From assembly GCA_032718475.1 (NCBI GenBank), contig JAUCBJ010003673.1:1-64000 (forward strand): DNA of 64,000 nucleotides. The letters run 5' to 3'. Positions 23,669-63,294 of the stretch are shown here, piece after piece; position 1 is the first letter of the stretch, and every line of letters begins with the position of its first letter. The DNA comes from Nemertoderma westbladi (lineage: Eukaryota > Animalia > Xenacoelomorpha). Made by a program: the position numbers and the translations under genes. The notes below the pieces were generated by a model. It did no database searches, was not told the origin of the DNA, and saw nothing but the letters and a program-made list of their open reading frames with translations.

Positions 23669-23986
23669 TGCTCAGTAGCTGCCTAGTTCATCTACACAGC
23701 AGCACAGGCCAGGAATAGAGTACTACATCTAGGCCTACAATCTAAATCCACTTATATTATAAATTCTGAAATTTATTCAAAAATAAATTCGTAATTCTAA
23801 TTATTTTAAAATTTAGTTTATATAAATTGCGCCCCGTACCGTATACAACTTAGAACTTACCATCCACCATCCAGAGCACTCTTGTAGTTACTGGTGGTCA
23901 CTGATTGAAAGCTGAAGTTACATTTTCATTGTATCAAATTGTATTACTCACCTAATCGGATCAATAATAATCGAAATAATTTAGAT

Positions 23987-27960: not shown

Positions 27961-28390
27961 ATTGTGAATTGTATATGAATACTACAGTAGGTGGTGTAAC
28001 ATATGGTGGGACCATTTTATTTTGATTACCAGGTGAAATGTTTTTGGAAATGTGTTAGATATCAAACGTGCAACTGCAAAGCACTGCGTGCCAACGTGCA
28101 AAATGTGCAACTATCAAACTAGTTAGGAACCTGGCAATTCCGGTAAAATTCCGGCCGGAATTGACCCCATTCCGGCAATTCCGGCCGGAATCGGGCAAAA
28201 ACCGCCGGAATTCCGGCCGGAACGGAATTCCGGGACATCCCTAATTGTGTGCAAAGTAGCACTTTGCGAGATTATTATGTACCGAGCGCAGCGAGGGAGG
28301 TTTACATACATAAACAAGGGTCTTTAACGTTGAAAAGTGACCTTTGCAAGCAATGATGTATGTAATTTTGTTACATTAAATTTTGTACTT

Positions 28391-31025: not shown

Positions 31026-31900
31026 TTAATGATGCCGCTTCTGTGCTACCAGGGTCTGGTGGCAATAGCAACAGAAATATGAGCTATACTCTTCCAGGTT
31101 GGAATGAGTACGTACGACCATTCAAAGAAGATGCTATATTCTGGCATAGTTTATGGTTATCCGCAGGAAAACCTAATGCGAGTTCGGGTAATTTATTCCA
31201 CATGAGACGTACTTCTAGAGCACAGTATAAGTTTGCTGTGCGTAGACTGACAAGAAAAGTAGACTTCATAAATAAGGATAAGTTACTAAATGCCTGTTTA
31301 ACAAATTCTAGTATTAATATATTTTCAGAAATACGTAATTTAAGAGGCAATAGCTCCACTGGTTGTAGTTCTACTGCAGACGGTGCAACTGATGATATTT
31401 CTATTGCTAATGAGTTCGCTTCTATATATAGGGATTTATTTAATAGAGGGTACGACTCTGATTTATCATTTATTGAAAGTAGTATTAATGAACAAATTTC
31501 TAGTTTAAATTCATCGGTTTGTGATTTAATTACACCGGAATTAGTTACTTGTGCACTAAATAAGTTGAAATCTGCTAAGTCAGATGTCGATAATATTCTT
31601 AATTCAGACTGTTTAAAGAACGCTAACGTTGATTTAGCTGAACATCTTTCTAACCTATTCAATGCATTTGTAGTACAGGGATATGTACCATTATTTTTAT
31701 TGCGTTTTGCTCTTGTACCAATAATTAAAGATAAACTTGGGAGTATGACATCTTCTACTAATTATAGGGCTATTGCGATTTCATCATTAATTATTAAAGT
31801 GTTTGAATGGGTTATACTAATTTCTCATGAAGATAACTTTAAATTAGATGAACTACAGTTTGGTTTCCAGCGCAACTCTAGTACCACTATGTGTAGCTGG
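31026..31900 (+). mobile_element. LINE A (RTEX-like, clade tentative), 5' portion of pol
   Basis: LPGWNEYV...FWHSLW linker, then RT N-terminal motifs LVPIIKDK, NYRAIAISSLIIKVFE and QFGFQRNSSTTMCSW. The frame continues after the insertion at 49301. Confidence 0.88.
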
Positions 31901-32177
31901 TGTAAACACCCTAACACTCGGGTCCCCAATGCGACAAGGTGAGCTGACTGCCTTGGCAGATAAGCTTTCTCTTAGCGCAGTGGGTGTTCAAGAGTTCCGA
32001 ATGCAGACTGGACAGACTGATGAGGTTCTGATTAAGGACATGGGGGGCGGTTGGCGACTCGCCCTCGCGTCAGCAGAAGATAGTGGCAATGGTGGAATTG
32101 GTCTATTGATGAATCCAACTGCACATGCAGCATTGGACAAAATAGACCAAATCTCTAACCGCATCATCCGTTCATCA
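31901..32177 (+). mobile_element. RTE-like LINE B, APE endonuclease N-terminal fragment
   Basis: VNTL...AVGVQEFR...GNGGIGLLM...ISNRII are APE-type endonuclease motifs. The fragment begins right after the TSD GTAGCTGG (31893-31900). Confidence 0.8.
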
Positions 32178-33746
32178 TGTTCAGTAAAACATATTCCTAC
32201 TAAATGAAGAGACAGTAACAAATACACGAATCCTGCAATATCATACTATAAAGTTTGTGAATCAAATCATAAATCCGACCTTCTCACCAAAACAGTAAAC
32301 TCCAAGTAGGCGAATATATTGCAGTATCGGTCTCTTATAACCGGTGAGGCAGAAAACAGTCTACGAACGGACAAACTTCGATAAAACAAAATCCCGCGCA
32401 GCGAATCCTAAAATCAGGCTGACTCACTGACGGACTAAGGGGCTTGTATACTTTGCCGCGGTGTGATTTATATGGTTGGGCGAAAAGGACGCTAGCTAGG
32501 TGCAGAGATCTGGAGATGTCTAACTAGCGGGCAAAGTGCAGTACGGACAAAAGTTAATTTTATATATTTTGAGGTGTAAATAATTTCTAACGCGCGTGTG
32601 TTAATTCTGAACCGTCAAGATCAGTTTTGCTCCTTCATATATATAATTACTGGGTACGGTGTGCATTTTACGAATATTCTAATTTTGTAACTTGTAGGTC
32701 CAATACTCACGAATGATAAGGCTCCTTCCCCTCTTGCGTATTTCCCCTACAAGTTCTAATGCAATGGACACCGTTGTACTACAAATAGTCACAGACGCAC
32801 CTGTACTTAGCAAGAGTTAGGCGTACAGTTTGCTGCACCCTACCAATGTGTATGCTTTGTACCGGTGTGCCTACGTCCTATCTGCGTACTAGTATCTCTG
32901 CCTGCTTCCCCCGTAGGAATATGAAGGTCTACTGCGGTTTTTTCCTGAATTAAAACAGTACAGTCCCTAGATGTAATTTTAGGCGTACAGCGTGTCACTA
33001 CCTCTACCTTCGATCTGGGCGAATAACTAAGAGTGATATTGCGGGTTGTCTCCTGTCTACATTCCTTAGATGTTCCCGTTCATTGCTGTGGCCCGATGTT
33101 TAGCCAGCCATCCTGTCCCTCAGTTGAGTTCACCGTGGTGAAGCATAGTAAAACAGATAGAAAAAGGGCAGATTAGCGATAATTCTGACTTTATTACAGA
33201 AGATATACATAAACGTAACAAGAAACTAATAGATAACTAATAAAGATAATCTAAAGCACGAATGATTGAGATATAGACTGAGGTTTAGATATAACTAATG
33301 AACGAAATCGCACCTTTTATACCAAATTTGTGCCGCAATCAATCGAGAAAATTCTCGATTGTTCTATGAGTTCTAACAGGTTTTTAAAGATAGCTATTGG
33401 TCCAACGAATATATAACTTGTACGACATTGGTTACAATCTAATAACTACAATCTCATTGGTTAATCTTACTTCGAGCAAATGCAATTAATTTGTAGCGGT
33501 CAATTTAAATGAGTTGAAATTCTGCACGCACAAAAAATAATTCGCACCTACTAGGATTCGAACTCAATACACACTACATATAATTTCCAACGCTCTACCG
33601 ACTGAGCTACTGAACCACTTGAATAATCATCGTACAAATAGATATAGCAAATACAAATGAGGACTTAATGTAATCTTTTAACAAAGTTAATTCGAATAAA
33701 ATAAAAATTTTGAAAATCCACGGCATTTAGAGAATATAATTCTATA
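32178..33746 (-). repeat. 3' LTR (about 1.57 kb)
   Basis: Near-identical to 46434-48374 apart from two larger indels. Sense termini are TATAGA...CTGAACA, preceded by the short purine-rich GGAGCGG. Confidence 0.93.
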
Positions 33747-34387
33747 CCGCTCCATGAAAACAGGATATTATCGTGCATAAAATATACGGTTTTCACCAAT
33801 AATCAATCAAATTATAGAATACTTAGGGCGTACTTACATATTTACAAATTAAATTTCAAACAATACTTCCTTTCTACATAATGATTCGATACAAAATAAT
33901 TACAAATTCAAACTTTACATATTTAAAGCTTTACTAAGTAAGTACAATATAAATCTAAATTAAATTCACCAAAATAAATCTATTTCATCTCGATATTGCG
34001 AAATTCAAATAATTACAAATACAAATAAATGAAAATCATAAGAAAGGCTCGCGAGTCTTCCATCTACTATTGCATCTCAAATATTGCACTTAGACTTAAA
34101 TTCAAGTAATTACAAATACCTTGTGCCTAAATGTAGATTGCATAAGTTCGGAATAATTACAAATATGAGTCTTTCTAAGTACAAAACTTTCTAACTATAA
34201 AACCTTCTAAATACAAAATATAACACTTTACAAATGAAACTATAAGAAAGGCCCATGAGTCTTCCATTACAAACTCCGTTACAAACCGTACCGTTACAAA
34301 CTTACTAAATATAAAATATATAACTCAAATAAATCACAAATTCACAAGAAAGGCTCACGAGTCTTCCGTCCACCCTTGCCCTCCCTT

Positions 34388-37300
34388 TTATCGCTTAGTA
34401 GATCGAGCCCTGCCGCGTCCTCGAAAACTGCGCACAGGTGACTTTGCTCGCGATATGGGACTCGTGGGGCGAGTCACTGGTTTTGCTTGTACATTGGGAG
34501 ACGGTGCGACCGTTTCCTCACAAATTCGTCTATTTGGTATCCCAAAACCTCGACCGATTCCTCGTGACCGATCAGTTGTCACTACAGTTGGTAAAACGTC
34601 TGGGAACGCGCGGGAAGCGGACGACGCAGACCCAAGAGTAGCTTGCGCCCCCTTTTGATCAGCTGGTGTATGTCCCGATCCTCCTGTTGGTTCTCTAGGA
34701 AGCGATACCGTATCCCGAGTAATTCGAATGGTCGGCTCAACTCCCTTGCGTTCTTCTATATTAATAGACTTCTTTAATTGTTGGCTCACTTTCTGGACCC
34801 TTATGATCCTACCCTGCCCGTCCTCCCGAGGGTGACGTGCAGACGGCGCAACCGGAGTGGCTGGTATATTTGTCGCCTCTAGGATCTCCTCTTCCTCGAA
34901 TACGCTCGCTCGTATACGTTTGTGGTAAAACGCGGCTCGGTATGCCCACGCGACGGTTAACCAAGCTCCCTTATTCCGCCTTTCAGTTCGGAAACGATCA
35001 AATTCACCATACGTGATACGATTCACAACTTTCTGAAAATTCCACGTATTTTTATTGTCCGGGTGAATCTGTAACAGATACTCGCGCACCACTCTAAATC
35101 CACTATCGTGAGGCAAAATATCGACTACCTCGATAAGTTCGTCATATTGGGGCATAGCGGAGATGTATCCTTCCGACATCATCGTTTGGGGATTTACCGC
35201 CCAAAATCCAAGATGCGCTCTCATCGGAAATCGTCTTCTATGTGCCGATACATGTTCGTCGGCTAAATCTTCCCACTCATCGAATAGTTTTCTCACGAGT
35301 TTTACAGATTCGTGTTCATAAGGTATGTCTCTTAGTTGGCATTCAGATGCTCGATGCCCTTTTATATTGCAATAAGTACATTGAGCCATAAATCTCCAGC
35401 AAGTATAAAAGGTATGAGACCCTTGATCTCCACACCATCCACAGATTAGTTGAGTCGTAGTAATGTGCTTTCCACTGCACTTGGTCAAATGATGTCCAGC
35501 GACGCCACATTTACTACACATCGTATTGGCAGGGTACCACACTCGTTCGTATATAAGATCTCCAATTGGTCGAGCGCTTCCTCCCACACTATAATCATAA
35601 TCATCTGGATCTATGGGTTGGTATGTTTCTGAAGGTTGTATACAAACTACAGCATCTGTTGCTTCAAGTTGTCGAATCTCCGTCTGAGATTTCTTCGGGA
35701 GGTTCCTTTCTATCTCAAGAAGTTCCTCTAAAGGATCGTCAGTGATCGTTGTCGTTACTTCGAAATCACCACCAAGGTGACCGATAGGCGCGCGCGTCTG
35801 CCGTGATTCATCCATAACCTCCACGATACGTTCTCCTTCATAGGGTAACAATGTAAACATAGATGGTCTTTCGATAAGAGATCCCGCACAGCGAAGATAC
35901 ACGTCTCGAAATATACTAAATCCTGCTCGAGTAAAGGCATTACACTGAGCGTCGGAGTTGTAGAAGGGTTCAAGAAATCGTCTAAACACGTCGGTATGAA
36001 TTCTCCCTTCCATGTAGAACATATGATCTTCTCCGAGACAAAGTGGATGTCTTTTAAGAGTCCGAGACACAATGTCGGCGATTAAGCAAACATTCACTGA
36101 CGACTCTATTGCTAAATAATATTGTAAGACCGCTCTTGGAGGTGACGTAATAGCCCAATACACGCATCCTCTCCATTTGAGCTGTGATTCAAACTCACTC
36201 ATATCTGGAGTATCACCTTCTCCATAAGTCTCAATATACTTAGCTCTCTTACTTTCCTTATAATCCCAATTGAATAACAGGTAGGAAATGTAACCAGCTC
36301 CAGTCTTCTGAGTAATATTCTCACGAAAATATCCCTGTTCTATAGACCACAAAATAAGAGGTCGAGTGTCGACGTACGGTGTCGGTAGTCGGTCATCGCT
36401 GTCCGTCATGCCGGCAAAGTCGCTAATTAAGTCCTCTCTTACTCCTGATCCAATCTTTACGACAGTTTTATCTAAAATCATATTTCTTACCATCTTCGGT
36501 AGCATTCTAGCATCGATATTACAAGCTTGGTCCATCTTCTTTACTATGTCAGTGATGAGATGGTGTCGCTTTGTATTTGCTGGAGGTATCGGCATTCGTT
36601 TGTCGCTCCTCTGTCTACTGAAAACGTGCAAGACTCCGTCCGCCGCTCTAATTTGTATAGTCTTAGAAGTCAAACTCTGTTGATGACTGCCGCCCTCGTT
36701 ATCGTAAAACATGTAACCATTTTCCTGAAACGATCTAAACGTTCTATTCCATTCGTCCAACAATTCTTCCGAAGGTTGCCAAATCTTCTCTATGTCCTTA
36801 TCATCTTCGAAACGAATAACCTTACCTCGCCAATCCATGGCAATATCTGTATCCGACTCGAAGGTTCCAGTTCCAATCCATAAACGAATTGTTCTGGTTA
36901 AATATCCTTTCAAATTACTCGGAGCTATATCAGCACCAGCTCTATCCAGTTCCCTAAAGTCTTGAATATGAGGTGGAACGTTATACACGACCTTTTGAGT
37001 AATATGTCTACGTAAATCATATATCTTACTCATATCGCTAAAAACAACTGCAGGAAGGAACTCCAAGTTTGAAATGATTTCTGGATGATCCACGATGGGT
37101 ATTTCGTACGTCGTATCCTGTCGGACTGGTATACTAATAGGAAAATTGAGTGTCGTACTCAATGGTTTCGTAGTCGAAGTACTATATGGTTGCATTTCTC
37201 TTGTCCTCTCCGGGGATGCAATCTGTAGTCTCTGAATAACGTTTTGAGCAAAGTTTATGCTCTCGAAAACTTCCGGTGTCATCTCCTTAGCTGGAGTTTG

Positions 37301-38221
37301 ATCGTGTGACGTCCAATGGTAAGGTAGGCTCGCGAGTCTTCCGCCCCATTCTACCATCTCACCTTTCTCGAAAGCCTTGTAGGCTCTGTATAGGCTAAGA
37401 GCTTCTTTCTTTTCGCGGGTTGACTGATTCGCCTCGTCCAGCATAAGTTCAAATGCATCGGGTTCAACAACCTTAGGTGGGTAAACGACAGTTTCTCCCG
37501 CCTTTGGTCCAGTCATAGCAAACGAATGATATGGATTTGATAAAGGATACCCTCCTTCCTGGTAGCGTAGTTGTTGATGGTTCGAACACCTCGCCAATAT
37601 CGGTTCGGGATTTTCCTTATTCAAACGCATTGGAATCGCATTTCGTTGTTCGCGCATACAAGAACCGCATTGATAATAAAGTTTATAAACTGAAAATGCT
37701 TCCTTGGTTTCTCTATCATCCCCTCGAGTTCGTCTGTAAAGGTGCATTCCATCGAATTCATCGCGTACCGCAGGCATAGGTTCGTGCGCCTTTAGGTATT
37801 GCATGGTATGATACAAACGACTAATTTCAGTATCGGGGTCTTCGCTAATGTCTCCCGTATCACACAAAGCGTCGTACGGGTAAAGTTCATTGAAGGTTTT
37901 GCACAAACTTTCGATTCTTTCATTTAATGCGTTTTGCCTTCTCTTTAATACATTCGAGTCATATTTAGTTCTCGCGAGTTTCGCAGTACTTTCTGATAAT
38001 TCCTTTATACCAAATATAGTGTAGTCTTTGGCTCCAAATCTCTCGAATCGCGCTGCTGCTTCCTCTTGGATATCATATCCCCATCTCGGCTCTCCATGTA
38101 TCTCCTTCTCCATAATTAGAGGTGTAGTTACATAATCATTACTACTAGAGGGAATACAACAGAGTTTGTAGTTAGTTGTGAGGAGACGTGAGAGTTTTCG
38201 TCTGCCCTTTTGGCTCGACAA
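34388..38221 (-). CDS. Retrotransposon extra ORF: DnaQ-like (WRN/EXD2-type) 3'-5' exonuclease domain plus three CCHC zinc knuckles
   Basis: ExoI YMFYDNEG, then TIQIRA, LPKMVRNMILDKTVVKIGSGVREDL (ExoII), YVDT and ExoIII-like QYYLAIES. Knuckles are CSKCGVAGHHLTKC, CGWCGDQGSHTFYTC and CTYCNIKGHRASEC. The called start is TTG; the first ATG is at 38113. Confidence 0.78.
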   Translation of the reverse strand: MSSQKGRRKLSRLLTTNYKLCCIPSSSNDYVTTPLIMEKEIHGEPRWGYDIQEEAAARFERFGAKDYTIFGIKELSESTAKLARTKYDSNVLKRRQNALNERIESLCKTFNELYPYDALCDTGDISEDPDTEISRLYHTMQYLKAHEPMPAVRDEFDGMHLYRRTRGDDRETKEAFSVYKLYYQCGSCMREQRNAIPMRLNKENPEPILARCSNHQQLRYQEGGYPLSNPYHSFAMTGPKAGETVVYPPKVVEPDAFELMLDEANQSTREKKEALSLYRAYKAFEKGEMVEWGGRLASLPYHWTSHDQTPAKEMTPEVFESINFAQNVIQRLQIASPERTREMQPYSTSTTKPLSTTLNFPISIPVRQDTTYEIPIVDHPEIISNLEFLPAVVFSDMSKIYDLRRHITQKVVYNVPPHIQDFRELDRAGADIAPSNLKGYLTRTIRLWIGTGTFESDTDIAMDWRGKVIRFEDDKDIEKIWQPSEELLDEWNRTFRSFQENGYMFYDNEGGSHQQSLTSKTIQIRAADGVLHVFSRQRSDKRMPIPPANTKRHHLITDIVKKMDQACNIDARMLPKMVRNMILDKTVVKIGSGVREDLISDFAGMTDSDDRLPTPYVDTRPLILWSIEQGYFRENITQKTGAGYISYLLFNWDYKESKRAKYIETYGEGDTPDMSEFESQLKWRGCVYWAITSPPRAVLQYYLAIESSVNVCLIADIVSRTLKRHPLCLGEDHMFYMEGRIHTDVFRRFLEPFYNSDAQCNAFTRAGFSIFRDVYLRCAGSLIERPSMFTLLPYEGERIVEVMDESRQTRAPIGHLGGDFEVTTTITDDPLEELLEIERNLPKKSQTEIRQLEATDAVVCIQPSETYQPIDPDDYDYSVGGSARPIGDLIYERVWYPANTMCSKCGVAGHHLTKCSGKHITTTQLICGWCGDQGSHTFYTCWRFMAQCTYCNIKGHRASECQLRDIPYEHESVKLVRKLFDEWEDLADEHVSAHRRRFPMRAHLGFWAVNPQTMMSEGYISAMPQYDELIEVVDILPHDSGFRVVREYLLQIHPDNKNTWNFQKVVNRITYGEFDRFRTERRNKGAWLTVAWAYRAAFYHKRIRASVFEEEEILEATNIPATPVAPSARHPREDGQGRIIRVQKVSQQLKKSINIEERKGVEPTIRITRDTVSLPREPTGGSGHTPADQKGAQATLGSASSASRAFPDVLPTVVTTDRSRGIGRGFGIPNRRICEETVAPSPNVQAKPVTRPTSPISRAKSPVRSFRGRGRARSTKR

Positions 38222-38774
38222 CGCTCTAACCTCCTACCCATAGCCTAAGATCTAGGGTTTCTTTAATGACACGCTGCTTCTTATCTAAAATTTTTTGCCG
38301 AAATAAAAACGAATTTAGGCTAAACTGGCTGTGAGTCTAAAATACTCACCTTTTGATCCCAAACTATTATCAGAAAATAAGCAGTCAAGAATTAGTAATA
38401 AATATAGGGAAGTCTATTTTGACGTAACTTATTGAAACAAGACCGTGTAAAATTTAATTAAAATTTTTAAGAAAGGCTCGCAAGTCTTCCTCTCTTGTTT
38501 CTCTAATTTTAAGTTCCACCCCACTGTACCCTGAAATCTATTCACTGGAGAAAATTTTAAAAATTTTTCAAATCCAAATGGATTGTCTAAAATTTCGAAA
38601 ATGTCTCAATATTGTGAGTTCCAAGTAGAATTCCATTTCTTATACCTACAAATCCCGCTCCTATGTGACACATAAGGGTACTACCCTCAATGTTCACATA
38701 TAAAGACAATGGAATTCTACCGCTGTCCTTACTACAGTGTACAGGTACGTGGAAATCTATTTGTAAACTCCTAA

Positions 38775-41447
38775 TTATTTACTAACATTTGTTGGAGATT
38801 TGTAGTCTCCAGACTCGTTTCGAGTCTCTTCAAGAAGTACGAGACGTTGAGTCGGTCTGTCTACTGTACGACCGTCAATTGTCCGTACCGTCACAGTTCT
38901 TGTTACTCCATCCATAGATGGATGTGTGTCTAAAATTACACCTGTTATCCAGAAGCGTCTTTTTAGATTCACTTCTGCTAACAGCACGTGATCTCCCGGC
39001 TTTAATGCGCGGGTGTTATTGTACCATGTTGTTCTGGCAGAAATAGAGGGCAAATAATGGTTTTGCCATATTTCCCAGAATTTGTTAGCTAGTAGTTGCG
39101 TGATTTTCCACGCTTTTCTACCGTAGCTATCGCCTTCCATTGGAAAAGAAATAGGCGTCAAAGTAGTCGGTGCCTGCATAAGCAGGTGTGCCGGTGTCAA
39201 AGCAAACTGGGATTGTTTGTCATCGGGTACTAATACTATTGGTCTAGTATTTAGTATTGCCTCGATTTCAACAAATAGTGTTGTCAGTTGGTCGTCTGTC
39301 AATATGTGGTTTACTGGAATGACCTTTGCCATGGCTGTTTTTATAGATCTAATCAATCTCTCCCAGACTCCGCCTCTCCATGGACTATCTGGAGGATTAA
39401 ACTTCCAAACAATCTTGTAAGGACGTAGTTCGTTTGAGATTTGATCATGATCTAATTTCTTAAAGGCTCTAGCAATTTCATTTCGGGCACCAACAAAGTT
39501 TGTCCCTTGGTCTGAGTACAAGCATTTCACTAGTCCGCGTCTAGCGATAAATCGCCGCAATGCTAGTATAAACGCGTTGGTGGAAAGATCCATCACACGT
39601 TCAATATGAACTGCCCTACTGGACATACATGTGAAAATCAGTCCCCAGCGTTTTACTAGTATACGTCCACGTTTCGTATGTATGGGACCAAAGCAATCAA
39701 TTCCAGTCTCTGTAAAAGGTGGTCTGAATGCTTGAAGTCGTGCTTGTGGAAGTTCACTCATTTCTTGAGTACCTATTCTAGAGTGTACCTTTTTACAAAT
39801 AATACACGTACGTGTCACTGAACTTAACGCTTTACTGGGTCTAATTAATACAAATCTTGTACGTAAGTAGGAAAGACAGTGGTGTCTTCCAGCGTGTTTC
39901 AGATGTAAATGTGCGTCCAGTATCATTGCATGTTGTAATTCGTGATGCTGCGGTATTATTATTGGGTATCTAAAGTTTGTGTTAAAGTCAATGTTTTGAA
40001 GCCGAGATTTATGACAAATTAAGCCATTATAAATTATCGGACTCCAACTCAATATTGGTGACGACTTGATTGGTTGACCTTGATTTATAGATGTGAATTC
40101 GCGTGCGAAATATCGCAGTTGGTAATGGCGAATTAATTTAATTTCACACCTGTCAATCTCAGTCAATGTAAGTCGACGTGTAAAGTCGCGTTTGCCTTTA
40201 ACGTATTGTACAAAACGTACAATCCACGCTAATTTTCGGCAAGCGTTTGTCCAAGAGTCTGTTAGGTTTACAATACGGTCGACGTAAGTATTTGTGACGT
40301 CATCAGGTAAGTCAATGGAGAATTTGGAAGGTTTTGATTTACTAGAAGGGCCCACGGGTCCGCCGGTAGGTATTCCCTTGTTGACTGTTAATCCGTCCGG
40401 GTCTACAAGTAATTTGTCCTTCTTTGTTTTCTTACCTTGATTGTCAGTACTTTGTAAGTCGATCGTTAATGGTGGTTTGAACTCTATGGGGTCACTGGGT
40501 TTCGGTAAACTTATTTTTCTGCCGATATTAATCCCAGGTCTCACCATAGGTTGCAAGTTTGGTATGTCTCTTGAGCGCAAAGTAACACCTGTATTTACAT
40601 TAGCGTAGGTACTACCCACATCTGTAATACATGAGGTTTCACTGTGCTTATGGTTACTCAAGTGTGTCAAATTTGGTAGTTTGTCAATACAAGGCCGCTC
40701 CAATAGAGAAACTGCGGCTTTACTATTTGTCAATATGTTACTAGTGTCTGGTAGAACATTTTGTGACATGTCTGGTAGAATGTTTCGCGGAACATCCGGC
40801 GAAATATCTAGTGACGTGTCTGGCAAAACGTCTGGTTGACCGTCTAGTAACGCGTCTGGCGATACGTCTGGTAACGTGTCTGGTTGTTTGTCAATAGAAG
40901 GCCGCTCCAATAGAGAAACTGCGGCTTTACTATTTGTCAATATGTTACTAGTGTCTGGTAGAACATTTTGTGACGTGTCTGGTAGAATGTTTCGCGGAAC
41001 ATCCGGCGAAATATCTAGTGACGTGTCTGGCAAAACGTCTGGTTGACCGTCTAGTAACGCGTCTGGCGATACGTCTGGTAACGTGTCTGGTTGTTTGTCA
41101 ATAGAAGGCCGCTCCAATAGAGAAACTGCGGCTTTACTATATGTCAATAGGTTACTAGTGTCTGGTAGAACATTTTGTGACGTGTCTGGTAGAATGTTTC
41201 GCGGAACATCCGGCGAAATATCTAGTGACGTGTCTTGCAAAACGTCTGGTTGACCGTCTAGTAACGCGTCTGGTTGACCATCTAGCGATATGTCTGGTGT
41301 AGAAAGGCTCGCAAGTCTTCCGGCGTTATCATCTGTCATCGATGGAATCTCTGGCTGACTCGCCTTCTCCCCAAGTTCTAAACTCACCTGGTGGATTAGC
41401 TGCTCCTTGTGACTTATCGTATTAGCTACACACGTCGTACTTGTCAT
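38775..41447 (-). CDS. BEL/Pao integrase preceded by a low-complexity repeat region
   Basis: HHCC (HLHLKH...CIIC), DDE triad (TGIDCFGP, YSDQGTNF, GGVWERLIRSIK) and BEL C-terminal FWEIWQNHYL. No RT or RNase H motifs. Confidence 0.92.
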   Translation of the reverse strand: MTSTTCVANTISHKEQLIHQVSLELGEKASQPEIPSMTDDNAGRLASLSTPDISLDGQPDALLDGQPDVLQDTSLDISPDVPRNILPDTSQNVLPDTSNLLTYSKAAVSLLERPSIDKQPDTLPDVSPDALLDGQPDVLPDTSLDISPDVPRNILPDTSQNVLPDTSNILTNSKAAVSLLERPSIDKQPDTLPDVSPDALLDGQPDVLPDTSLDISPDVPRNILPDMSQNVLPDTSNILTNSKAAVSLLERPCIDKLPNLTHLSNHKHSETSCITDVGSTYANVNTGVTLRSRDIPNLQPMVRPGINIGRKISLPKPSDPIEFKPPLTIDLQSTDNQGKKTKKDKLLVDPDGLTVNKGIPTGGPVGPSSKSKPSKFSIDLPDDVTNTYVDRIVNLTDSWTNACRKLAWIVRFVQYVKGKRDFTRRLTLTEIDRCEIKLIRHYQLRYFAREFTSINQGQPIKSSPILSWSPIIYNGLICHKSRLQNIDFNTNFRYPIIIPQHHELQHAMILDAHLHLKHAGRHHCLSYLRTRFVLIRPSKALSSVTRTCIICKKVHSRIGTQEMSELPQARLQAFRPPFTETGIDCFGPIHTKRGRILVKRWGLIFTCMSSRAVHIERVMDLSTNAFILALRRFIARRGLVKCLYSDQGTNFVGARNEIARAFKKLDHDQISNELRPYKIVWKFNPPDSPWRGGVWERLIRSIKTAMAKVIPVNHILTDDQLTTLFVEIEAILNTRPIVLVPDDKQSQFALTPAHLLMQAPTTLTPISFPMEGDSYGRKAWKITQLLANKFWEIWQNHYLPSISARTTWYNNTRALKPGDHVLLAEVNLKRRFWITGVILDTHPSMDGVTRTVTVRTIDGRTVDRPTQRLVLLEETRNESGDYKSPTNVSK
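40681..41298 (-). repeat. 207-bp (69-aa) coding tandem repeat, about 3 copies, built from 12-bp subunits
   Basis: AAGGCCGCTCCAATAGAG recurs at 40691, 40898 and 41105; the peptide has PDxx periodicity. Confidence 0.92.
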
Positions 41448-41507
41448 GTTGTCGTGTTTTATCGACGCTTGTGTAGTATAGTCTCGGTCGTGTGAAAGGG
41501 AATGAGT

Positions 41508-42848
41508 CTAAGTTGTAGTTAATAAACTACATGTACTTTGTATATCGTCTTCCTCGTCACTTATATCCAGTGTGCGCACAGGCGCTCGAGTATACCACCC
41601 TATCGGCGTTCTACAGGCGTATGTGTTTCCCGCTACGACTGCCGATGGTCTGGTTTCCCACACTTGATGTAGGTTGAATTGATCTGTCCCGATCAGCATT
41701 GCTACCGACCTATAGTTGACAGGACATTCAGGTACACCAAGGTGTCTGAAGTACTTACGGTCCTCCAAGGATTGTTCTGGGACAGGACCTAGTAGGTTAC
41801 TAAAGTCCTTTGTGGCCGGAAAGGTTAAATCTTTAAAGGGTAACAAAGACCTCTCCTTTTCGCTATGTTGCGATTTCGGAAGAAGAGTGTCTAAGTTCAA
41901 CTTAACTCGTGTCACTGGTATTGCACGTTGTCCATGCATACTACTTACGGTGTAACTGACGTTCTTACCTTGTCGGAGATCCGTCACAACATCAGCTACT
42001 TTCTCATCCACGTAGCTATGAGATGAGGCTGAATCCAGGATAGCGTAGATCCTTTTGCTCCCTTTGGTGCCAGTAATCTTGACAGGAATTATACTAAACC
42101 CCTTTAGTTGATCAGGCGTCAGAAGCGCAATCGATGGTTGTTCGTCTCCAGTATCAAAGTAAACGTCTTCGTCTTCCGACTCTTCATCCGACGATCCTGA
42201 TTGTTCCGAGAAGCAATCTCTAATGTATGTCACGAAAGTCGGTGTTGTTTTTGACTCTCGACCCTTATATGCTGTGTTGCATCTTGCTGCCGCTTCCGGG
42301 TGTTCCCTGGTGAAGCGTTTGGTCGGCGTATGACTGTCTGTGTGGAGCAAACCGTCATGGTTGCGTCCACAGGAAGGACAGATGTCTGTATTTGGGCAGT
42401 CTTTACGGACATGTCCATGTAGCGTACACCGCCAACAAGAGTCCAATGGCCGTATTTGCAGTCGTTGTTCCTCCGAGTTCAATTCGCGGAATAGTCGACA
42501 ACCTCTCAGTTTATGGCTAGTATGTCGTTTACCTAGCCGTTCGCAATATTGGCAACTGCTAAAGTCTGTGCTCAGTTGCTGTCGGATCTGTTTGGTTCCA
42601 ATTGGTGCGGATACCTTATTACTGTCCGAAAATTGTCGGGTGTCGGTCGATGTTGCGTAGGTAACCGTCTTTGTGGATGTCATCGGTGGTTTTTGTCTGT
42701 TGGAGGATGGTAAGGTTATTCCTTCTGCCACAATATGTTGGTCCGTGTAGTTCGAACGCGTCTCGACTACTGCCTCTCTGGATATCATTAAGTAGACGTC
42801 TTCCAACTTCAAGAATCCGCCCCTCTCTTCTCGCTGATATTCTATCTT
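41508..42848 (-). CDS. BEL gag C-terminus (three zinc knuckles) and aspartic protease
   Basis: CQYC..H..C, CWRCTLHGHVRKDC, CPSCGRNHDGLLH, protease YAILDSASSHSYV, MLIGTD and RTPIGW. In frame with both neighbouring ORFs across single stop codons. Confidence 0.9.
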   Translation of the reverse strand, partial: KIEYQREERGGFLKLEDVYLMISREAVVETRSNYTDQHIVAEGITLPSSNRQKPPMTSTKTVTYATSTDTRQFSDSNKVSAPIGTKQIRQQLSTDFSSCQYCERLGKRHTSHKLRGCRLFRELNSEEQRLQIRPLDSCWRCTLHGHVRKDCPNTDICPSCGRNHDGLLHTDSHTPTKRFTREHPEAAARCNTAYKGRESKTTPTFVTYIRDCFSEQSGSSDEESEDEDVYFDTGDEQPSIALLTPDQLKGFSIIPVKITGTKGSKRIYAILDSASSHSYVDEKVADVVTDLRQGKNVSYTVSSMHGQRAIPVTRVKLNLDTLLPKSQHSEKERSLLPFKDLTFPATKDFSNLLGPVPEQSLEDRKYFRHLGVPECPVNYRSVAMLIGTDQFNLHQVWETRPSAVVAGNTYACRTPIGWYTRAPVRTLDISDEEDDIQSTCSLLTTT

Positions 42849-45644
42849 TCACCACTCCCGACGAAGTCGATGGTGTAATCTTCCTATTATTTTCAATAGG
42901 ACTGTCGGAGTGTTCGCGTAGTCAAGTTGTCCAATCGAGCGTAGTGTAGTAATGGCGTTTTTAATCTCGTCAGCTAATTTCAGTAAGTCAACGGGTTTTG
43001 TTATAGCCCCCCCCTTACAGAGTTCTTCTATCACTGACTTAGCCATGCTTACAGTGCCTCCGTAAATCGAAGTTAAGCGATCGTACGCTAGTTCGAAGGC
43101 GTCTGGTACACCGACAAAGGTCTCCGCTAGACGTTTCGGTTCTCCCGTCAGCGTTTGTAGCAGGTAGTTGAATTTCTCCCTCGATGTAAAGGCGCACGTT
43201 GCTATTTGGGTTTCGATGTAGTCCACAAAGGTGTGCCAATGTTTCGAGTTACCGGAAAACTTAGGTGGTTGTTGCACCGGTAATCCTTGTCTGGCTGCGA
43301 ATTTCGCTATCTCCTCGGCCACGTTCAAAGTTTCGCGTCCTTGGTTGGCAATCGAGTTGATGTTCTCTCGTCTTGGCGCTTTTCCTTGATACGAGGTGTT
43401 TCTCGAGGGTTGTTTTCTTTGCTGCTTCGGGTGTCTAGAGTGTTCGAACTCGTTACCTCGCGAACTATCAGTTTGAGTTTCTTCTAAACGTTCTTCTATC
43501 TGGGCCAACTTGTCTACAACTGGTCGCATTAGATCGGCGAATTGTTGCGTACTAATCGCGTCTGTTGGTTGTAACGCTTTCTGTGTTGGTGTATTGTGTG
43601 GAGGATTATCGATAAAGGAGTTATCTGAACGCTCACGTTTATATTCGTCGGCCGCTCCTGTTCTAAATACCTCGCGTTCCGGGTAATCCGACTCGCTTGA
43701 AGTACTACTGTCACCTGGATACGGTGGTCGACGTGCTCGCGTCCGTTGTGTCGTTCGAATTCTAACATTCCGTTTCGGAACATCATCCACTGTTCTCCGT
43801 TGTTTGGTAGGCTCACAAGTCTTCCTCGAAGTTGTAGATTGCGATGTAAACTGATTAAACGGTGGTCGAATGACAGCGTTTGAATCTAAAGGCCTTGTAG
43901 GCCTAAACGTCATTGGGTACGTGTAATGCATAACGGGTTTTGGTGTCGAAGGTGGACTCACCTGTTTTGTCGTCAGTGGTGCAGGTCCGGTCAACAAACT
44001 ACTACGATCTGTAATCGGTGGGTTACTTACCTTGACTTTCAGAATGGGCGACGACGTTGCTCTTGGCGGTGTAAACTTGTCCGGAATAACAAACCTGTGT
44101 TCCGTCGCACCATGGATAGGAGAAATATTACTACTACCAGCAATCGAAACAGGTTCCTTAGTCGTAATCGGTGCAAACATAGGAGTTACTTGAGGGAATC
44201 TTTGACATAAGTCTTTTACCAATTGTCTTTCTCGCCCAGGTGCCCCTACACTTCCTTCCTTCATTCGTTCCTGAATTTGGCGGTGCCTTACCTCTATCTG
44301 GTCCAAATCATGTCCGTCACGAGATCTCATCGATCGATCGCAGGCTTGTAGATCCAGATCTTCCTTCGCGTTGGCTAATTCTCTCGCCTTCTTCTCGAGT
44401 TCGAAATGAAGTTTAACTTCTTTCTCGCGTTGTTCCGTCTGTTGTTGTTGCGCCTCGAACTCCGCTTGTCGTATAGCTGATTGAGCCTTTATTTGCCGTT
44501 TTTTCATCTCAGCTCTTACTTCCGAAATACGCTTGTGTTCTTCCAACGCTGCTGCTCGTCGCTCTAAATCAGCCGCTGCCGCTTGTCGTTCCAACTCAGC
44601 TGCTGCCGCTTGTTGCACTAACTCAGCTGCCGCTGTTCGCTGTGCTATTTCTAGCTCCAACCTTTCCATCTCACCCGCTTCCAACTCGGCTTGTTCTTGC
44701 AGCTGAGAGATTCTCGCAACATTTGCAACGCGTAGTTTTTCTTCTTCTACCGCCGCTTGTGCCGTCAACAGTTGAGTTTGTTCCTCAATTTCCCGTTGTT
44801 GTCTATAGTGCTGTTGTTGCTGTCTGGAAATTTCTGACGTCACTATACTTACCTCGCCAATTTCGCTGCGAATACTCACTAACGATTGGTCCAGTATTCC
44901 CGGTGCCGATTCGATTTGTACGGGTGAAGTTTCCCTCGTATATTCCGGCACGGTTTCCAAATCGCCGACGTCTTCGCCGCACATACGTAAGTGGTCCGTC
45001 AGATGTTTCAATTGTCCATCCAGTCGGTACAGTTCCTGTTCTTCCTCGGGCTGCAATAATTCGTCCGAAACTGACTCACCTAACAACTGGTCCGCTTGTT
45101 CCTGTTGTATCTGCCTAATCGTCGACTTAAACTGAATCAGTTTCTCTCTAGCGATCATTAGTTTCTCGAGGATTCTAAGTTGAGTATCCACGTCCTGTCT
45201 CTGTCTAGCTAGATCTTGTAGACCAATTAGATTATCTACGGACTTATGTACTCTACTTTGTACTCTAACCTGGAGGGTGTAGAACTCAAACCGAGACATC
45301 GGAGCGGTTAACTCGTCTAATATGCGTTGGCCTTCCCCAATACTCCTGGTAATATGCGCCATGTAGCCTCCGACGCTTCTAACCACACTCTCCTGGCTTC
45401 CTACTGAACTTACCATGTCCGTTTCCCTGTATCTAGGTTGCGGAACAGTTAGAAAGTCCTCGGTCCTGCCGTCGCCTCGTACTACGGCATCCGGTACTCC
45501 CGTTGGATGTACTGGTGACGCACACGGTGTAGGTTCGGTAGGCTCGCGAGTCTTCCCCTGTAGTTCTTCCGCTGCTGACTTATCTCCGTCGCATGAGTCA
45601 TAGTCGGTAGGTGTATTCTTCGTATAGTCTTGTTTGTCACTCAT
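42849..45644 (-). CDS. BEL gag N-terminal part (coiled coil plus DUF1759-like capsid region)
   Basis: PPKFSGNSKHWHTF...EKFNYLLQTLTGEPKRL...AYDRLTSIYG is the BEL gag signature. Ends at an in-frame TGA within gag. Confidence 0.88.
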   Translation of the reverse strand: MSDKQDYTKNTPTDYDSCDGDKSAAEELQGKTREPTEPTPCASPVHPTGVPDAVVRGDGRTEDFLTVPQPRYRETDMVSSVGSQESVVRSVGGYMAHITRSIGEGQRILDELTAPMSRFEFYTLQVRVQSRVHKSVDNLIGLQDLARQRQDVDTQLRILEKLMIAREKLIQFKSTIRQIQQEQADQLLGESVSDELLQPEEEQELYRLDGQLKHLTDHLRMCGEDVGDLETVPEYTRETSPVQIESAPGILDQSLVSIRSEIGEVSIVTSEISRQQQQHYRQQREIEEQTQLLTAQAAVEEEKLRVANVARISQLQEQAELEAGEMERLELEIAQRTAAAELVQQAAAAELERQAAAADLERRAAALEEHKRISEVRAEMKKRQIKAQSAIRQAEFEAQQQQTEQREKEVKLHFELEKKARELANAKEDLDLQACDRSMRSRDGHDLDQIEVRHRQIQERMKEGSVGAPGRERQLVKDLCQRFPQVTPMFAPITTKEPVSIAGSSNISPIHGATEHRFVIPDKFTPPRATSSPILKVKVSNPPITDRSSLLTGPAPLTTKQVSPPSTPKPVMHYTYPMTFRPTRPLDSNAVIRPPFNQFTSQSTTSRKTCEPTKQRRTVDDVPKRNVRIRTTQRTRARRPPYPGDSSTSSESDYPEREVFRTGAADEYKRERSDNSFIDNPPHNTPTQKALQPTDAISTQQFADLMRPVVDKLAQIEERLEETQTDSSRGNEFEHSRHPKQQRKQPSRNTSYQGKAPRRENINSIANQGRETLNVAEEIAKFAARQGLPVQQPPKFSGNSKHWHTFVDYIETQIATCAFTSREKFNYLLQTLTGEPKRLAETFVGVPDAFELAYDRLTSIYGGTVSMAKSVIEELCKGGAITKPVDLLKLADEIKNAITTLRSIGQLDYANTPTVLLKIIGRLHHRLRREW

Positions 45645-46433
45645 TTCGGTAGTTGTAAGTCAAGTAAAATGTGAGTGTCAAAGTATCAAATTTACCGTAT
45701 TTATATTTAAACGGTACTAATTACAGTCATATAAAATTAGCCTACCGGCCGATTTTATAGCAGATGGATAAAATTAGCCTAAGCGGCCAATTTTACAGCA
45801 AATAAATGTCACGGAATAAGTATATAATAAAATTAGCCTAGCAGCCAATTTTATAACAAATAAATCGGATAACGATATGCGTTATCAAAAGGTAAATTAA
45901 ATACAATAATACGGACTAATTCAGCAATGAACAAAGAAATCGTACAGAATGCATAAATACTTGAGACAGTGGAACCCACAATAATTTTAACTAATACGGT
46001 AATGCCTAACTTATTTATGCAACTTTTCAAACTCACCCACTCCAATGATTCTCCAGAAAAACAGATTCCCAGATACAAACCGGACGTGAACCTTTCCGTT
46101 TCCAGCGTTGCGGACGAAGTGCGATTTTCCCAACCAAAGTTGTTGGGTTATCTATCTCCCAAACTTGCTAAACACGGTCTTGCTCTCGTTACAGTCTAGA
46201 AATGAGTTCTGAATCCTGAAAAAACAAAAGAGTTAGGTTTTACTTTTACGAAAATTTTGTACCGGTACAATATGGTATTTAAACCCTTTTAAACACCGGT
46301 ATTCAATTCCAAAATATTTTACACGCGGTTCAAATCAAATTTTATTTCAAAAAATTAGCACTTAGCTAATCAAATATAAATTTTACCTCAAAATACAAAA
46401 ATTTTCAAATAACTTTAGTCCTACCGAACCGTA

Positions 46434-48374
46434 GTTCAGTAAAACATATTCCTACTAAATGAAGAGACAGTAACAAATACACGAATCCTGCAATATCATA
46501 CTATAAAGTTTGTGAATCAAATCATAAATCCGACCTTCTCACCAAAACAGTAAACTCCAAGTAGGCGAATATATTGCAGTATCGGTCTCTTATAACCGGT
46601 GAGGCAGAAAACAGTCTACGAATGGACAAACTTCGATAAAACAAAATCCCGCGCAGCGAATCCTAAAATCAGGCTGACTCACTGACGGACTAAGGGGCTC
46701 GTATACTTTGCCGCGGTGTGATTTATATGGTTGGGCGAAAAGGACGCTAGCTAGGTGCAGAGATCTGGAGATGTCTAACTAGCGGGCAAAGTGCAGTACG
46801 GACAAAAGTTAATTTTATATATTTTGAGGTGTAAATAATTTCTAACGTGCGTGTGTTAATTCTGAACCATCAAGATCAGTTTTGCTCCTTGATATATATA
46901 ATTACTGGGTACGGTGTGCATTTTACGAATATTCTAATTTTGTAACTTGTAGGTCCAATACTCACGAATGATAAGGCTCCTTCCCCTCTTGCGTATTTCC
47001 AGGACTCAAATTCAGGCATAAGATTAATGCTACGCCCAGAATTCGGCAATTTTAATTTACCAGGTCCCTAATACTAAGAAGAAATGTGTTAGTTTACTAC
47101 AGTAGGCGTACGGTTACTAATAGCTAGCCTGGCGTCCTATCTAGAATTTTGGTTACCTAGGTGGGCTTGGTAACTTCCTATCAGGATGTCGGCGGGGACA
47201 CGGTAGATGTTAGTATCCCTAAACAGCCTCAATTTATTTGCGCCTAGTCGTAAACTGCCCTACCGCCTGAACGGTACAATCCTAATTCAGGTGAAACACA
47301 GTAACCCTCCTGGCCTACAAGTTATAATGCAATGGACACCGTTGTACTACAAATAGTCACAGACGCACCTGCACTTAGCAAGAGTTAGGCGTACAGTTTG
47401 CTGCACCCTACCAATGTGTATGCTTTGTACCGGTGTGCCTATGTCCTATCTGCGTACTAGTATCTCTGCCTGCTCTCCCCCGTAGGAATATGAAGGTCTA
47501 CTGCGGTTTTTTCCTGAATTAAAACAGTACAGTCCCTAGATGTAATTTTAGGCGTACAGCGTGTCACTACCTCTACCTTCGATCTTTGGTCTTATACTTA
47601 GGTAGCAAGGCATCGAACGCTGTCTAACCTTTCAGGCGATGGGCGAATAACTAAGAGTGATATTGCGGGTTGTCTCCTGTCTACATTCCTTAGATGTTCC
47701 CGTTCATTGCTGTGGCCCGATGTTTAGCCAGCCATCCTGTCCCTCAGTTGAGTTCACCGTGGTGAAGCATAGTAAAACAGATAGAAAAAGGGCAGATTAG
47801 CGATAATTCTGACTTTATTAAAGAAGATATACATAAACGTAACAAGAAACTAATAGATAACTAATAAAGATAATCTAAAGCACGAATGATTGAGATATAG
47901 ACTGAGGTTTAGATATGTATAACTAATGAACGAAATCGCACCTTTTATACCAAATTTGTGCCGCAATCAATCGAGAAAATTCTCGATTGTTCTATGAGTT
48001 CTAACAGGTTTTTAAAGATAGCTATTGGTCCAACGAATATATAACTTGTACGACATTGGTTACAATCTAATAACTACAATCTCATTGGTTAATCTTACTT
48101 CGAGCAAATGCAATTAATTTGTAGCGGTCAATTTAAATGAGTTGAAATTCTGCACGCACAAAAAATAATTCGCACCTACTAGGATTCGAACTCAATACAC
48201 ACTACATATAATTTCCAACGCTCTACCGACTGAGCTACTGGACCACTTGAATAATCATCGTACAAATAGATATAGCAAATACAAATGAGGACTTAATGTA
48301 ATCTTTTAACAAAGTTAATTCGAATAAAATAAAAATTTTGAAAATCCACGGCATTTAGAGAATATAATTCTATA
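46434..48374 (-). repeat. 5' LTR (about 1.94 kb)
   Basis: Direct repeat of 32178-33746, with extra segments at about 47001-47313 and 47586-47640. Confidence 0.93.
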
Positions 48375-49300
48375 TCCTTAGATCATCATAATGATGATGG
48401 GGTGATGATAACTCCACCTACTGGCTCCAGAAGTCGAGGAAATAATGCCAAGTACCTATCTGATCTAGACTTTGCTGATGACTTAGGAGTACTCTCAGAA
48501 TCATTAGAGGGAGCCCAACGGCTCCTCAGCTCATTAGAACATGCTGCTTCTAGTGTTGGTCTTTTTATTAACTCCAGAAAGACCAAAATTTTGACAGTTA
48601 ACTTTGAAATTCCTCAGCAAGTCTCTGATCGGATGAGCATAAGCTCAAAGGATGGTATGCTTGAGCATGTGGACGACTTCTGTTACCTGGGATCATGGCT
48701 CCGGAAGTCAGGTGAGGACCTTCGAATACGTAAGGGAAAGGCATGGGCAGCCTTGAATAGGATTTCCAGGATTTGGAAGTCACCGAGAATTAATCGGAAA
48801 CTTAAGGTCCGATTATTTAGAGCAGCAGTAGTTCCAGTACTCCTCTACGGGAGTCCATGCTGGGCTCTAACTGCTGAGGACACCAAATCTCTGGATGGCA
48901 CATTCACAAGAATGCTACGCCGGGTTCATTGTGTCAAGTACAATGCACACATCTCCAACCAGACACTATATAACATTGGAGGTGTCTCATTGGTTCCCCC
49001 AAGCTTGACACTAGAACAAAATCGCCTCCGCTTTGCAGGACATTGCTTTCGCCGTGAGGACCAGCCAGTGCATAATCTTGTACTTTGGCAGCCTCATGGA
49101 GTGAATAAGCATGGTGGACAGCCCATGACTTTCTTGAGACGCATCTTAAAGGACACTGGCCTTGAAGATGCGGATGATCTAGCAAATGTCATGGGTGATA
49201 GGGAGTTGTGGCGGTGCAATTTTGTTGACAAGCCGGCACAGCATTCTTAAAAATGCAGCTGCAATGCAGCATGCCGATCCTAGTAGTAGTAGTAGTAGTA
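48375..49300 (+). mobile_element. RTE-like LINE B, RT C-terminus and (TAG)n tail
   Basis: LDFADD, GLFINSRKTK, FCYLGS, VLLYGSPCW and RLRFAGHCFR, stop at 49250, (TAG)n tail at 49281-49300, and TSD GTAGCTGG at 49301-49308. Confidence 0.9.
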
Positions 49301-63225: not shown

Positions 63226-63294
63226 ATTTCAGTATTTATACAGTTAAGTTCAGAAGTTAGGCTATATACAGATATATCTGATATCACGTACCGG

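Follow-up and report, generated by a model that had tools for sequence, protein, structure and literature searches.

A repeated 20-nt near-palindrome as a candidate dispersed RNA pairing site in a BEL/Pao retrotransposon without reverse transcriptase

The sense (minus) strand of a retrotransposon in Nemertoderma westbladi carries ten copies of one 20-nt near-palindrome, which adds two copies to the eight already known. It is tentatively proposed, on the basis of modelled folding energies, that these ten copies are dispersed, DIS-like RNA pairing sites with a predicted function in dimerisation and packaging. The pairing reading is supported by the copy number, the single orientation, the compensatory changes and the placement of the copies outside conserved protein cores.

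Judged from its sequence, the carrier is a high-copy BEL/Pao LTR retrotransposon, present here as a copy without reverse transcriptase (RT) and RNase H. All of its features described below lie on the minus strand. Two LTRs flank gag-pol; the aligned blocks of the 3' LTR (32179..33746) are ~99% identical to the 5' LTR (46434..48374), which is longer by 313 nt and 55 nt at two internal places. The gag ORF (42849..45644) has a DUF1759 capsid region at its end and an in-frame stop at 42849-42851. The same frame continues with the gag zinc knuckles and an aspartic protease-like part (41508..42848; in-frame stop at 41508-41510), and then with a linker followed by a BEL/Pao integrase (H2C2, DUF5641; 38775..41507). 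The integrase homology begins at 40283 and shows 34-42% identity to animal BEL integrases. In its LTRs, DUF1759 gag, knuckles, protease and H2C2 plus DUF5641 integrase, the element agrees with BEL/Pao elements (Belpaoviridae). Unlike typical members, it has a spliced extra ORF and, where RT and RNase H are expected, a repeat-rich linker of low complexity that includes three repeats of 207 nt (40674-41294). Residues 577-1203 of the RT-bearing protein P0127 found no match anywhere in the element, whereas this RT region was matched in 70 of the 79 BEL loci of a comparison panel. The similarity between the LTRs begins at TA, their ends differ by one base and show no clear TG...CA, and no matching target duplication is present in the 5-nt flanks. 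The leader does not start with TGG, no tRNA 3'-end primer site is evident in this copy, and an ARAGORN tRNA search found nothing in the element. Just after the 5' LTR, at the expected primer-site position, 11 nt (46420..46430) are a perfect complement of 45532-45542, a stretch shared in part with the 3' arm of the first motif copy.

The extra ORF (34388..38113; ~1240 aa) starts at the first in-frame ATG past a splice acceptor and contains a putative DEDDy-like exonuclease (~36640-36071) and three CCHC knuckles (~35533-35078). The splice donor lies in the leader (46031..46040, exon end 46037), and a CTAAC branch-point-like site, a pyrimidine tract and the AG acceptor lie at 38141..38175 (exon start 38144). 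The joint 38144-46037 was found in run X4, the type of which was taken as DNA by guess, so that the joint may stem from a transcript or from a retro-copied transcript. In an alignment read by eye, the D-x-E and D motifs of the exonuclease are present, and the last acidic residue is E (Exo III Y-x-x-x-D); a Pfam search of the ORF gave no exonuclease match. The closest look-alike of the protein has an RNase D plus CCHC architecture: the top Atlas match was exo1 plus CCHC at 0.86, which serves as a lead only, and a representative-set search returned five weak matches, three of them of the same architecture. No match was found among proteins of near length, only one of the 79 panel loci matched (knuckle part only), and an AlphaFold model was unusable (pLDDT 34). 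Read cover reached at least 29 of 30 bins in three runs and 26 of 30 in a fourth. The earlier suggestion that the element has carried the extra ORF for a long time finds support in two motif copies inside this ORF, in the canonical splice that leads from the leader into it and in the cover in these four runs.

The eight copies listed in the preliminary description were all recovered, with the same coordinates, the same minus (element sense) orientation, the same loops and the same U-A to U-G stem change; its total, however, rises to ten, plus a possible eleventh. Copy 1 (45537..45556; loop CGCG) lies in N-terminal gag and copy 2 (43806..43825; loop TGTG) in a low-complexity part of gag. Copy 3 (41302..41321; loop TGCG) had been placed in the integrase ORF; it does lie in that ORF, but within the protease-integrase linker, of low complexity and upstream of the integrase homology. 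Copy 4 (40345..40364; loop CGTG) is new and diverged, copy 5 (38471..38490; loop TGCG) falls in the spacer between integrase and extra ORF, and copy 6 (37323..37342; loop CGCG) in the N-terminal extension of the extra ORF. Copy 7 (35783..35802), likewise new and diverged, lies in the extra ORF, after the exonuclease and ahead of the CCHC part, and copies 8 (34348..34367; loop CGTG), 9 (34246..34265; loop CATG, pair 8-13 U-G) and 10 (34042..34061; loop CGCG) lie in the 3' UTR. The possible eleventh copy (39871..39890), in the integrase zinc finger, is weak (13.2 bits, E 0.48); its stem is fully paired and its loop, CCAC, is not self-complementary.

A search of the window, i.e., the whole 64-kb stretch of DNA analysed, at up to three mismatches gave 13 matches (eight exact, four reverse-strand reads of the same near-palindromes, and one new copy), all within the element, as had been claimed. 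At this threshold 0.05 matches are expected by chance, and 13 were reached in none of 100 shuffles. Neither LTR holds a copy, nor do the ~51 kb of the window beyond the internal region, host genes included. Copies 4 and 7 were chosen by a sequence-only profile, with which 400 shuffles produced no match at 21.4 bits; at 13.8 bits, there were 0.025 matches per shuffle, 0.005 of them with all six pairs kept. The motif is spread over 11.5 kb, with 1-2.5 kb between copies; copy 1 lies ~880 nt after the LTR and the other nine up to 12.4 kb downstream. Six copies are within ORFs and none is upstream of the gag start. Conserved protein cores make up 40% of the coding length, yet hold none of the six coding copies (p ~0.05). 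With respect to the spliced RNA, half of the ten copies lie in the intron and half in the retained exon. The copies have sharp borders at 20 nt, and their flanks are unrelated to each other; copies 8 to 10, however, are not independent, being part of a longer, degenerate duplication in the 3' UTR (81% over 54 nt).

Constraint on the motif is supported at the nucleotide level, on one strand and via base pairing, in agreement with the preliminary description. The motif translates as KTREPT or KTCEPT in gag and as GRLASL in the other two ORFs, as had been noted, and neither GRLASL nor KT(R/C)EP was present in 127 fetched proteins. Three double (compensatory) changes are carried by the two new copies, namely, 8-13 U-A to C-G and 4-17 A-U to G-C in copy 4, and 8-13 U-A to G-C in copy 7. 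The observed number of compensatory cells together with the covariation score (3 cells, 2 pairs) was reached in 2 of 500 shuffles; the alignment consists of eight distinct, related rows, and such counts are thus not probabilities. Pairs 1, 2, 4, 5, 7 and 8, as well as the loop-to-loop pairs 9-12 and 10-11, are kept in all ten sense copies (G-U allowed). The central 8 nt are self-complementary in every sense copy, whereas antisense cores are broken in six of the ten. Ten bases (G1, G2, G5, A6, C7, G12, G14, C15, C16 and C20) are invariant. Loop variation, which had been offered as a sign of structure, is weak evidence on its own: seven C-to-U changes stand against one G-to-A (two-sided p 0.07, the copies not being independent). 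Decay of methyl-CpG as the origin of this variation is unsupported, since CpG is depleted neither in the window (observed/expected 0.96) nor in the element (1.17).

The predicted energies favour pairing between copies over pairing within them. On its own, the hairpin has little stability (-0.4 to -3.4 kcal/mol); it is predicted in its sequence context for one of the ten copies (probability below 0.2 in the other nine), and RNAalifold gave no consensus structure for the ten 20-mers. The hairpin proposed earlier is thus borne out in part only. The predicted self-duplex of two copies reaches -8.2 to -23.7 kcal/mol, copy 2 being the weakest (-8.2), and copies 8 and 9 of the 3' UTR are predicted to pair with each other with a probability of ~0.75. 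Because the hairpin is marginal and the self-duplex strong, RNA-RNA pairing fits the energies best among the three functions that had been put forward, i.e., packaging, kissing-loop dimerisation and binding by a zinc-knuckle protein. Stem extension from the flanks was rejected (p 0.31-0.57). Rfam covariance models gave three weak, unrelated matches, none over a motif copy, and hammerhead, histone stem-loop, Roquin CDE and Smaug SRE were rejected on register or for a missing core, in addition to having no Rfam match.

Under the pairing reading, a weak basal stem of 5 bp would display the 8-nt palindrome with an unpaired A and C beside it, and two copies would convert into a 20-bp duplex with symmetric A-C mismatches. 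The Gag knuckles, or the spliced DEDDy-CCHC protein, may chaperone these contacts and recognise them. An element that has to borrow RT from a helper would gain an advantage in packaging from a large number of sites; tandem duplication and template switching would generate new copies, which would persist where the protein permits. Several observations count against this reading. Any near-palindrome self-pairs; the antisense self-duplex is more stable than the sense one in seven of the ten copies, and an antisense hairpin is predicted more often than a sense hairpin. The compensatory changes at 4-17 and 8-13 suit a hairpin and an in-register dimer alike, and the loop pair 10-11, which alone separates the two, does so through one A-U case. 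The five copies kept in spliced RNA are unneeded for a genome-selective signal, an objection that is softened by the packaging of a spliced RNA alongside the genome in MLV.

The main rival reading, less likely than RNA-RNA pairing, is that each copy forms a small hairpin that contains an A-C mismatch and is capped by a Y-R-Y-G tetraloop, the hairpin being stabilised by a protein reader, either the Gag nucleocapsid or the spliced DEDDy-CCHC protein. The ten invariant bases and the fixed A-C mismatch exceed what pairing needs and would point to a protein reader, which suggests sequence reading; the covariation suits a hairpin equally, and the possible eleventh copy retains the stem without the palindromic loop. 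Such hairpins could serve as dispersed packaging signals if read by Gag or, by analogy with Cer1 CERV and Egalitarian, in RNA export, transport or protection if read by the DEDDy-CCHC protein. The extra ORF is spliced, as are cerv and the bdelloid ORF3s, its look-alike is of RNase D plus CCHC architecture, and in the available account the exonuclease-like domain of Egalitarian binds retrotransposon stem-loops (PMC13186709). Dispersed signals in coding inter-domain regions are likewise described for coronaviruses and other RNA viruses. Against the hairpin stand its near instability, its rarity in predicted context and the lack of a supporting stem from the flanks; moreover, a Rev/CERV-type export element would be expected only in the intron, whereas half of the copies fall within the exon that is retained. 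It is improbable that the motif is the target of a host RNA-binding protein or of an editing enzyme (germ-cell localisation, stability, A-C mismatch editing) and unrelated to particle assembly: copies occur in spliced and unspliced RNA with three clustered in the 3' UTR, and retrotransposon RNAs can exploit host localisation machinery (I-factor ILS), but host genes in the window hold no copy, Rfam gave no match at motif sites, and the known localisation signals, in the available text, are longer bulged helices (PMC13186709).

A double-stranded DNA dyad site for a dimeric factor (enhancer, insulator, or an element-encoded anti-silencing protein, as in VANDAL/VANC) is very improbable. The near-dyad symmetry with its CG-rich centre, the kilobase-scale spacing along the element and the putative nucleic-acid-binding domains of the extra protein would suit such a site; however, the ten copies are all oriented alike, paired positions co-vary, the changes that are tolerated are the ones compatible with G-U pairing on one strand, and no copy lies in an LTR, where DNA control sites are expected. 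Least probable of all is a lack of function, the copies being traces that template switching or local duplication left at a palindrome prone to recombination. The 3' UTR duplication and the gain and loss of motifs in family copies would fit this view; against it speak the sharp borders and unrelated flanks, the occupation of two frames of open ORFs, the pairing maintained through double changes in diverged copies and the absence of any dispersed 16-mer from 73 of the 79 other BEL loci.

Family copies vary in motif number through duplication and deletion around the motif, and some duplicate a 70-78 nt stretch that holds copy 2 (joints 43863-43786 and 43854-43785). Invariance of the motif across family copies is suggestive: none of ten variant sites fell within it (60 of 371 nt; p ~0.17 by hand, with contigs from other motif copies cross-mapping). 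The motif is absent from the 79 distant BEL loci. In viral_contigs, there were no exact motif matches, and neither the integrase nor the exonuclease alignment turned up relatives.

Palindromic dimer sites are known from HIV-1 (DIS/SL1), MLV (palindromes and GACG loops), Ty1 (PAL1/PAL2) and Ty3 (PAL6) (PMC516450, PMC6844567, PMC11381356). As far as these accounts go, the motif resembles them as a short self-complementary stretch of sense RNA whose palindrome is bordered by one or more unpaired bases and which, by prediction, caps a stem and rearranges into an extended duplex. The known sites, as described there, are one to few, near the 5' end and mutually different in sequence, unlike one 20-mer repeated ten times over many kilobases and inside ORFs, for which the function is predicted. 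Dispersed packaging signals of MS2 and HBV (PMC6281560) and the repetitive structural motifs of coronaviruses (PMC8206606) likewise present, in the available descriptions, a single motif many times over, both in UTRs and in coding sequence between domains. Those, however, are loop motifs on stable, variable stems, unlike a nearly wholly conserved 20-mer with a marginal hairpin in an LTR retrotransposon. The bdelloid LTR retrotransposons Juno and Vesta carry a DEDDy-exonuclease ORF3, which resembles the present ORF in being a post-pol, exonuclease-like extra ORF with a spliced message; they have a complete pol with RT, and the available text mentions no repeated RNA motif (PMC5408684). The present carrier, in contrast, is BEL/Pao without RT, and its longer ORF has three CCHC knuckles. 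Cer1 CERV is also a spliced accessory protein that acts on element RNA, a role proposed here by analogy; it is set apart by its description with G and M domains and a C4-type loop rather than exonuclease and CCHC (PMC10309623), and by the persistence of half of the motif copies in spliced RNA. Egalitarian, in the text available, uses its exonuclease-like domain in stem-loop binding, but belongs to the host and recognises bent helices of greater length (PMC13186709).

The literature search turned up neither a cis-acting RNA motif in BEL/Pao elements nor a published ten-copy layout of this kind. RNA selection and pairing sites have been mapped near the 5' end in Ty1, Ty3 and retroviruses. With ten natural variants and compensatory pairs within 20 nt, the motif lends itself, as a compact system, to tests of packaging, dimerisation and helper parasitism, and it is the first candidate RNA target for retroelement DEDDy-CCHC accessory proteins, the role of which is left open in the available text of PMC5408684. 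In its fullest form, the proposal is a speculative one: an RT-less BEL/Pao family may zip its RNAs together, or onto helper RNA, by ten interchangeable palindromes read by its own spliced DEDDy-CCHC protein. If true, this would be a genome-length RNA zipper by which a retrotransposon parasite wins packaging, and one that perhaps recurs among pol-deleted LTR elements.

The 20-nt near-palindrome carried by the BEL/Pao element is a real motif under pairing constraint, with a putative function. All eight copies of the preliminary description (34042, 34246, 34348, 37323, 38471, 41302, 43806 and 45537) were recovered on the minus strand and in the reading frames reported there. The claim that none lies outside the element also held in the window, as all 13 matches at ≤3 mismatches fell inside it: the eight known copies, four of these near-palindromes read again on the reverse strand, and one new copy (shuffled sequence gave a mean of 0.05 matches, and 13 was reached by 0/100 shuffles). 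Conservation is lost sharply at the edges of the 20 nt. A sequence-only profile built from the eight copies added one copy at 35783-35802, with 21.4 bits, and another at 40345-40364, with 13.8 bits. When the internal region was block-shuffled 400 times, the former score was never reached and at least 13.8 bits occurred 0.025 times per shuffle, or 0.005 times with all six pairs kept. A possible eleventh copy (39871-39890) scores weakly and has a complete stem and a non-palindromic loop. No conserved protein core contains any of the six coding copies, though 40% of the coding length falls in such cores (p about 0.05).

The pairing constraint is visible in the two new copies, where U-A at pair 8-13 is replaced by G-C and by C-G, and A-U at pair 4-17 by G-C; both retain the A6-C15 mismatch. 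Two-sided (compensatory) changes were present in three cells over eight distinct rows, a level found in 2/500 shuffles, which is not to be read as a probability since the rows are related. Slid registers were 36-58% paired vs 81% in the true register. With G-U allowed, the central 8 nt are self-complementary in 10/10 sense copies; antisense cores are broken in 6/10. Loop substitutions comprise seven C-to-U vs one G-to-A (two-sided p 0.07), the latter pairing with U, and CpG is not depleted in the window.

The RNA hairpin originally proposed survives as a pairing constraint, but a lone hairpin is weak and rarely predicted in context. Isolated sense hairpins have energies of -0.4 to -3.4 kcal/mol, in-context hairpin probability is below 0.2 for 9/10 copies, RNAalifold predicted no structure, and native flanks extended the stem no better than swapped ones (p 0.31-0.57). 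As a near-palindrome, the 20-mer is instead predicted to form self-duplexes of -8.2 to -23.7 kcal/mol. Copies 8 and 9 (34348 and 34246) pair together in the folded 3' UTR with a probability of about 0.75, and the whole 3' UTR folds no better than shuffled sequence (z 0.42). Two results argue against restricting the reading to the sense strand: in 7/10 copies the antisense self-duplex is the more stable, and the antisense hairpin is predicted more often than the sense hairpin, because its fixed defect is G-U where that of the sense strand is A-C.

For comparison, 79 distant BEL loci were taken from metagenome contigs (median 6.7 kb, 54/79 at least 6 kb, integrase identity 32-41%). The motif was found in 0/79 (best score 16.2 bits, E 0.57), a result of limited power given that 6.6-kb sub-windows of this element contain 2-4 separated copies (median 3). 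A generic finder of dispersed 16-mers (at least three copies, two mismatches) returned seven clusters in this element and nothing in 73/79 panel loci; of its six panel matches, five were due to long direct repeats or to contigs duplicated in tandem, and the sixth consisted of three loose 16-mers. In two panel contigs the whole BEL unit is repeated head to tail (L011, period 6138 nt; L062, 7294 nt), as tandem arrays or circular forms. In the open-licence literature, no report was found of a single palindromic motif recurring through LTR-retrotransposon ORFs, or of a BEL/Pao RNA motif of any sort.

The family is highly variable in the sequencing runs; X1 shows some 950 sites substituted at 10% share. 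Two contigs (about 90% alike) continue differently beyond the protease region, a hint of further forms in the family. Around the three 3' UTR copies, four runs gave seven substitutions and three indels at ≥5% share over 371 nt, and the 60 nt belonging to the motif had none; this is weak evidence of invariance across the family, because the chance of such an absence is about 0.17 (by hand) and contigs from other copies cross-map. Motif copy number is fluid, since joints in some family members remove one or other 3' UTR copy and others have the region of gag copy 2 (43806) duplicated by a net length that preserves the frame (81 and 84 nt).

The LTRs (46434-48374 and 32179-33746) are about 99% identical in aligned blocks and differ by three internal blocks of 313, 55 and 4 nt. 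No target-site duplication or clean TG...CA ends were found at 32170-32185 and 48370-48385, and this copy may have arisen by recombination between two insertions. Each LTR includes a tRNA-like stretch (33543-33616 and about 48171-48244), parts of which resemble an A-box and a B-box. It is uncalled by ARAGORN and Rfam and is reminiscent of the LTR sequence of tRNA origin in Helenus elements, which are described as short and non-coding, unlike this element (PMC10886601). One frame, interrupted by stops at 42849-42851 and 41508-41510, runs through gag (DUF1759), the knuckles, the protease-like part and the BEL/Pao integrase (H2C2, DUF5641). The best 120 relatives of this integrase are 34-42% identical and animal where named. 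The RT and RNase H region of an RT-bearing relative has no match in the element; its position is occupied by a low-complexity linker that includes three repeats of 207 nt, each containing a different GC-rich near-palindromic 20-mer (5' ends 41010, 41217 and 40803, minus strand). Runs X1, X3 and X4 all cover the linker, which is therefore not peculiar to this copy. At the expected primer-site position, 11 nt (46420-46430) are exactly complementary to 45532-45542, the 3' arm and flank of copy 1 (45537). This is narrowly the best leader duplex in the internal region (-23.0 vs -20.1) and may serve as a leader switch or in self-priming, or have arisen by chance.

For the extra ORF (34388-38113, minus strand), the search matched three unnamed proteins (E 6e-6 to 3e-4) in which an exonuclease-like domain precedes three CCHC knuckles. 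A profile combining the ORF with these three proteins matches PDB 7c42, a "CCHC-type domain-containing protein" that we take to be trypanosome RNase D; the top Atlas match, a euglenozoan exo1 plus CCHC cluster (0.86), is a lead only. In run X4, 46037 is joined to 38144, and the depth of this joint is similar to that of its neighbours. The sense strand has a GT donor, an AG acceptor and a branch-like CTAAC there, which indicates that the extra ORF is made from spliced RNA. Among bdelloid LTR elements, DEDDy ORF3s expressed from spliced messages are known (PMC5408684). Other family copies lack about 2 kb of this ORF (35829-37954, 35941-37974), with end points near copy 7 (35783) and near a partial motif core at 37971-37979.

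Elsewhere in the window, RhoGEF, kinase, lamin-like, nucleoporin-like and RDD host genes form long uninterrupted ORFs (14896-18924, 52571-53542, 54636-56375, 62179-63228, 23909-24970), which suggests an intron-poor animal genome. Two near-identical tRNA genes, Asn (GTT) according to ARAGORN, lie 312 nt apart (19354-19425 and 19666-19737). Large tandem arrays of 32-, 16- and 31-nt units (about 1150-8000, 9770-12750 and 28300-31030) and a fold-back element whose inverted arms are 243 nt long (22582-23653) are also present.

Our preferred reading, to which we give a little less than an even chance, is that the motif copies are repeated RNA-RNA contact sites for dimerisation and packaging. The whole mechanism, as we infer it, would begin with a weak basal stem displaying the 8-nt palindrome, which would then convert into an extended duplex in the manner reported for sites in retroviruses and Ty elements (PMC516450, PMC6844567, PMC11381356); the invariant bases and the mismatch would be recognised by the Gag knuckles or the accessory protein of the extra ORF. 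The closest rival, a hairpin stabilised by protein, is rather unlikely; it has parallels in dispersed viral packaging signals (PMC6281560, PMC8206606) and Egalitarian-type recognition (PMC13186709). A CERV/Rev-type export element (PMC10309623) fits less well because 5/10 copies remain in spliced RNA; spliced RNA is co-packaged by MLV (PMC2925334). Readings of the motif as a DNA site or as neutral are weakened by the uniform orientation and the covariation of paired positions. Under the dimerisation and packaging reading, an element without RT would rely on a helper, and many contact sites would therefore be advantageous to it.
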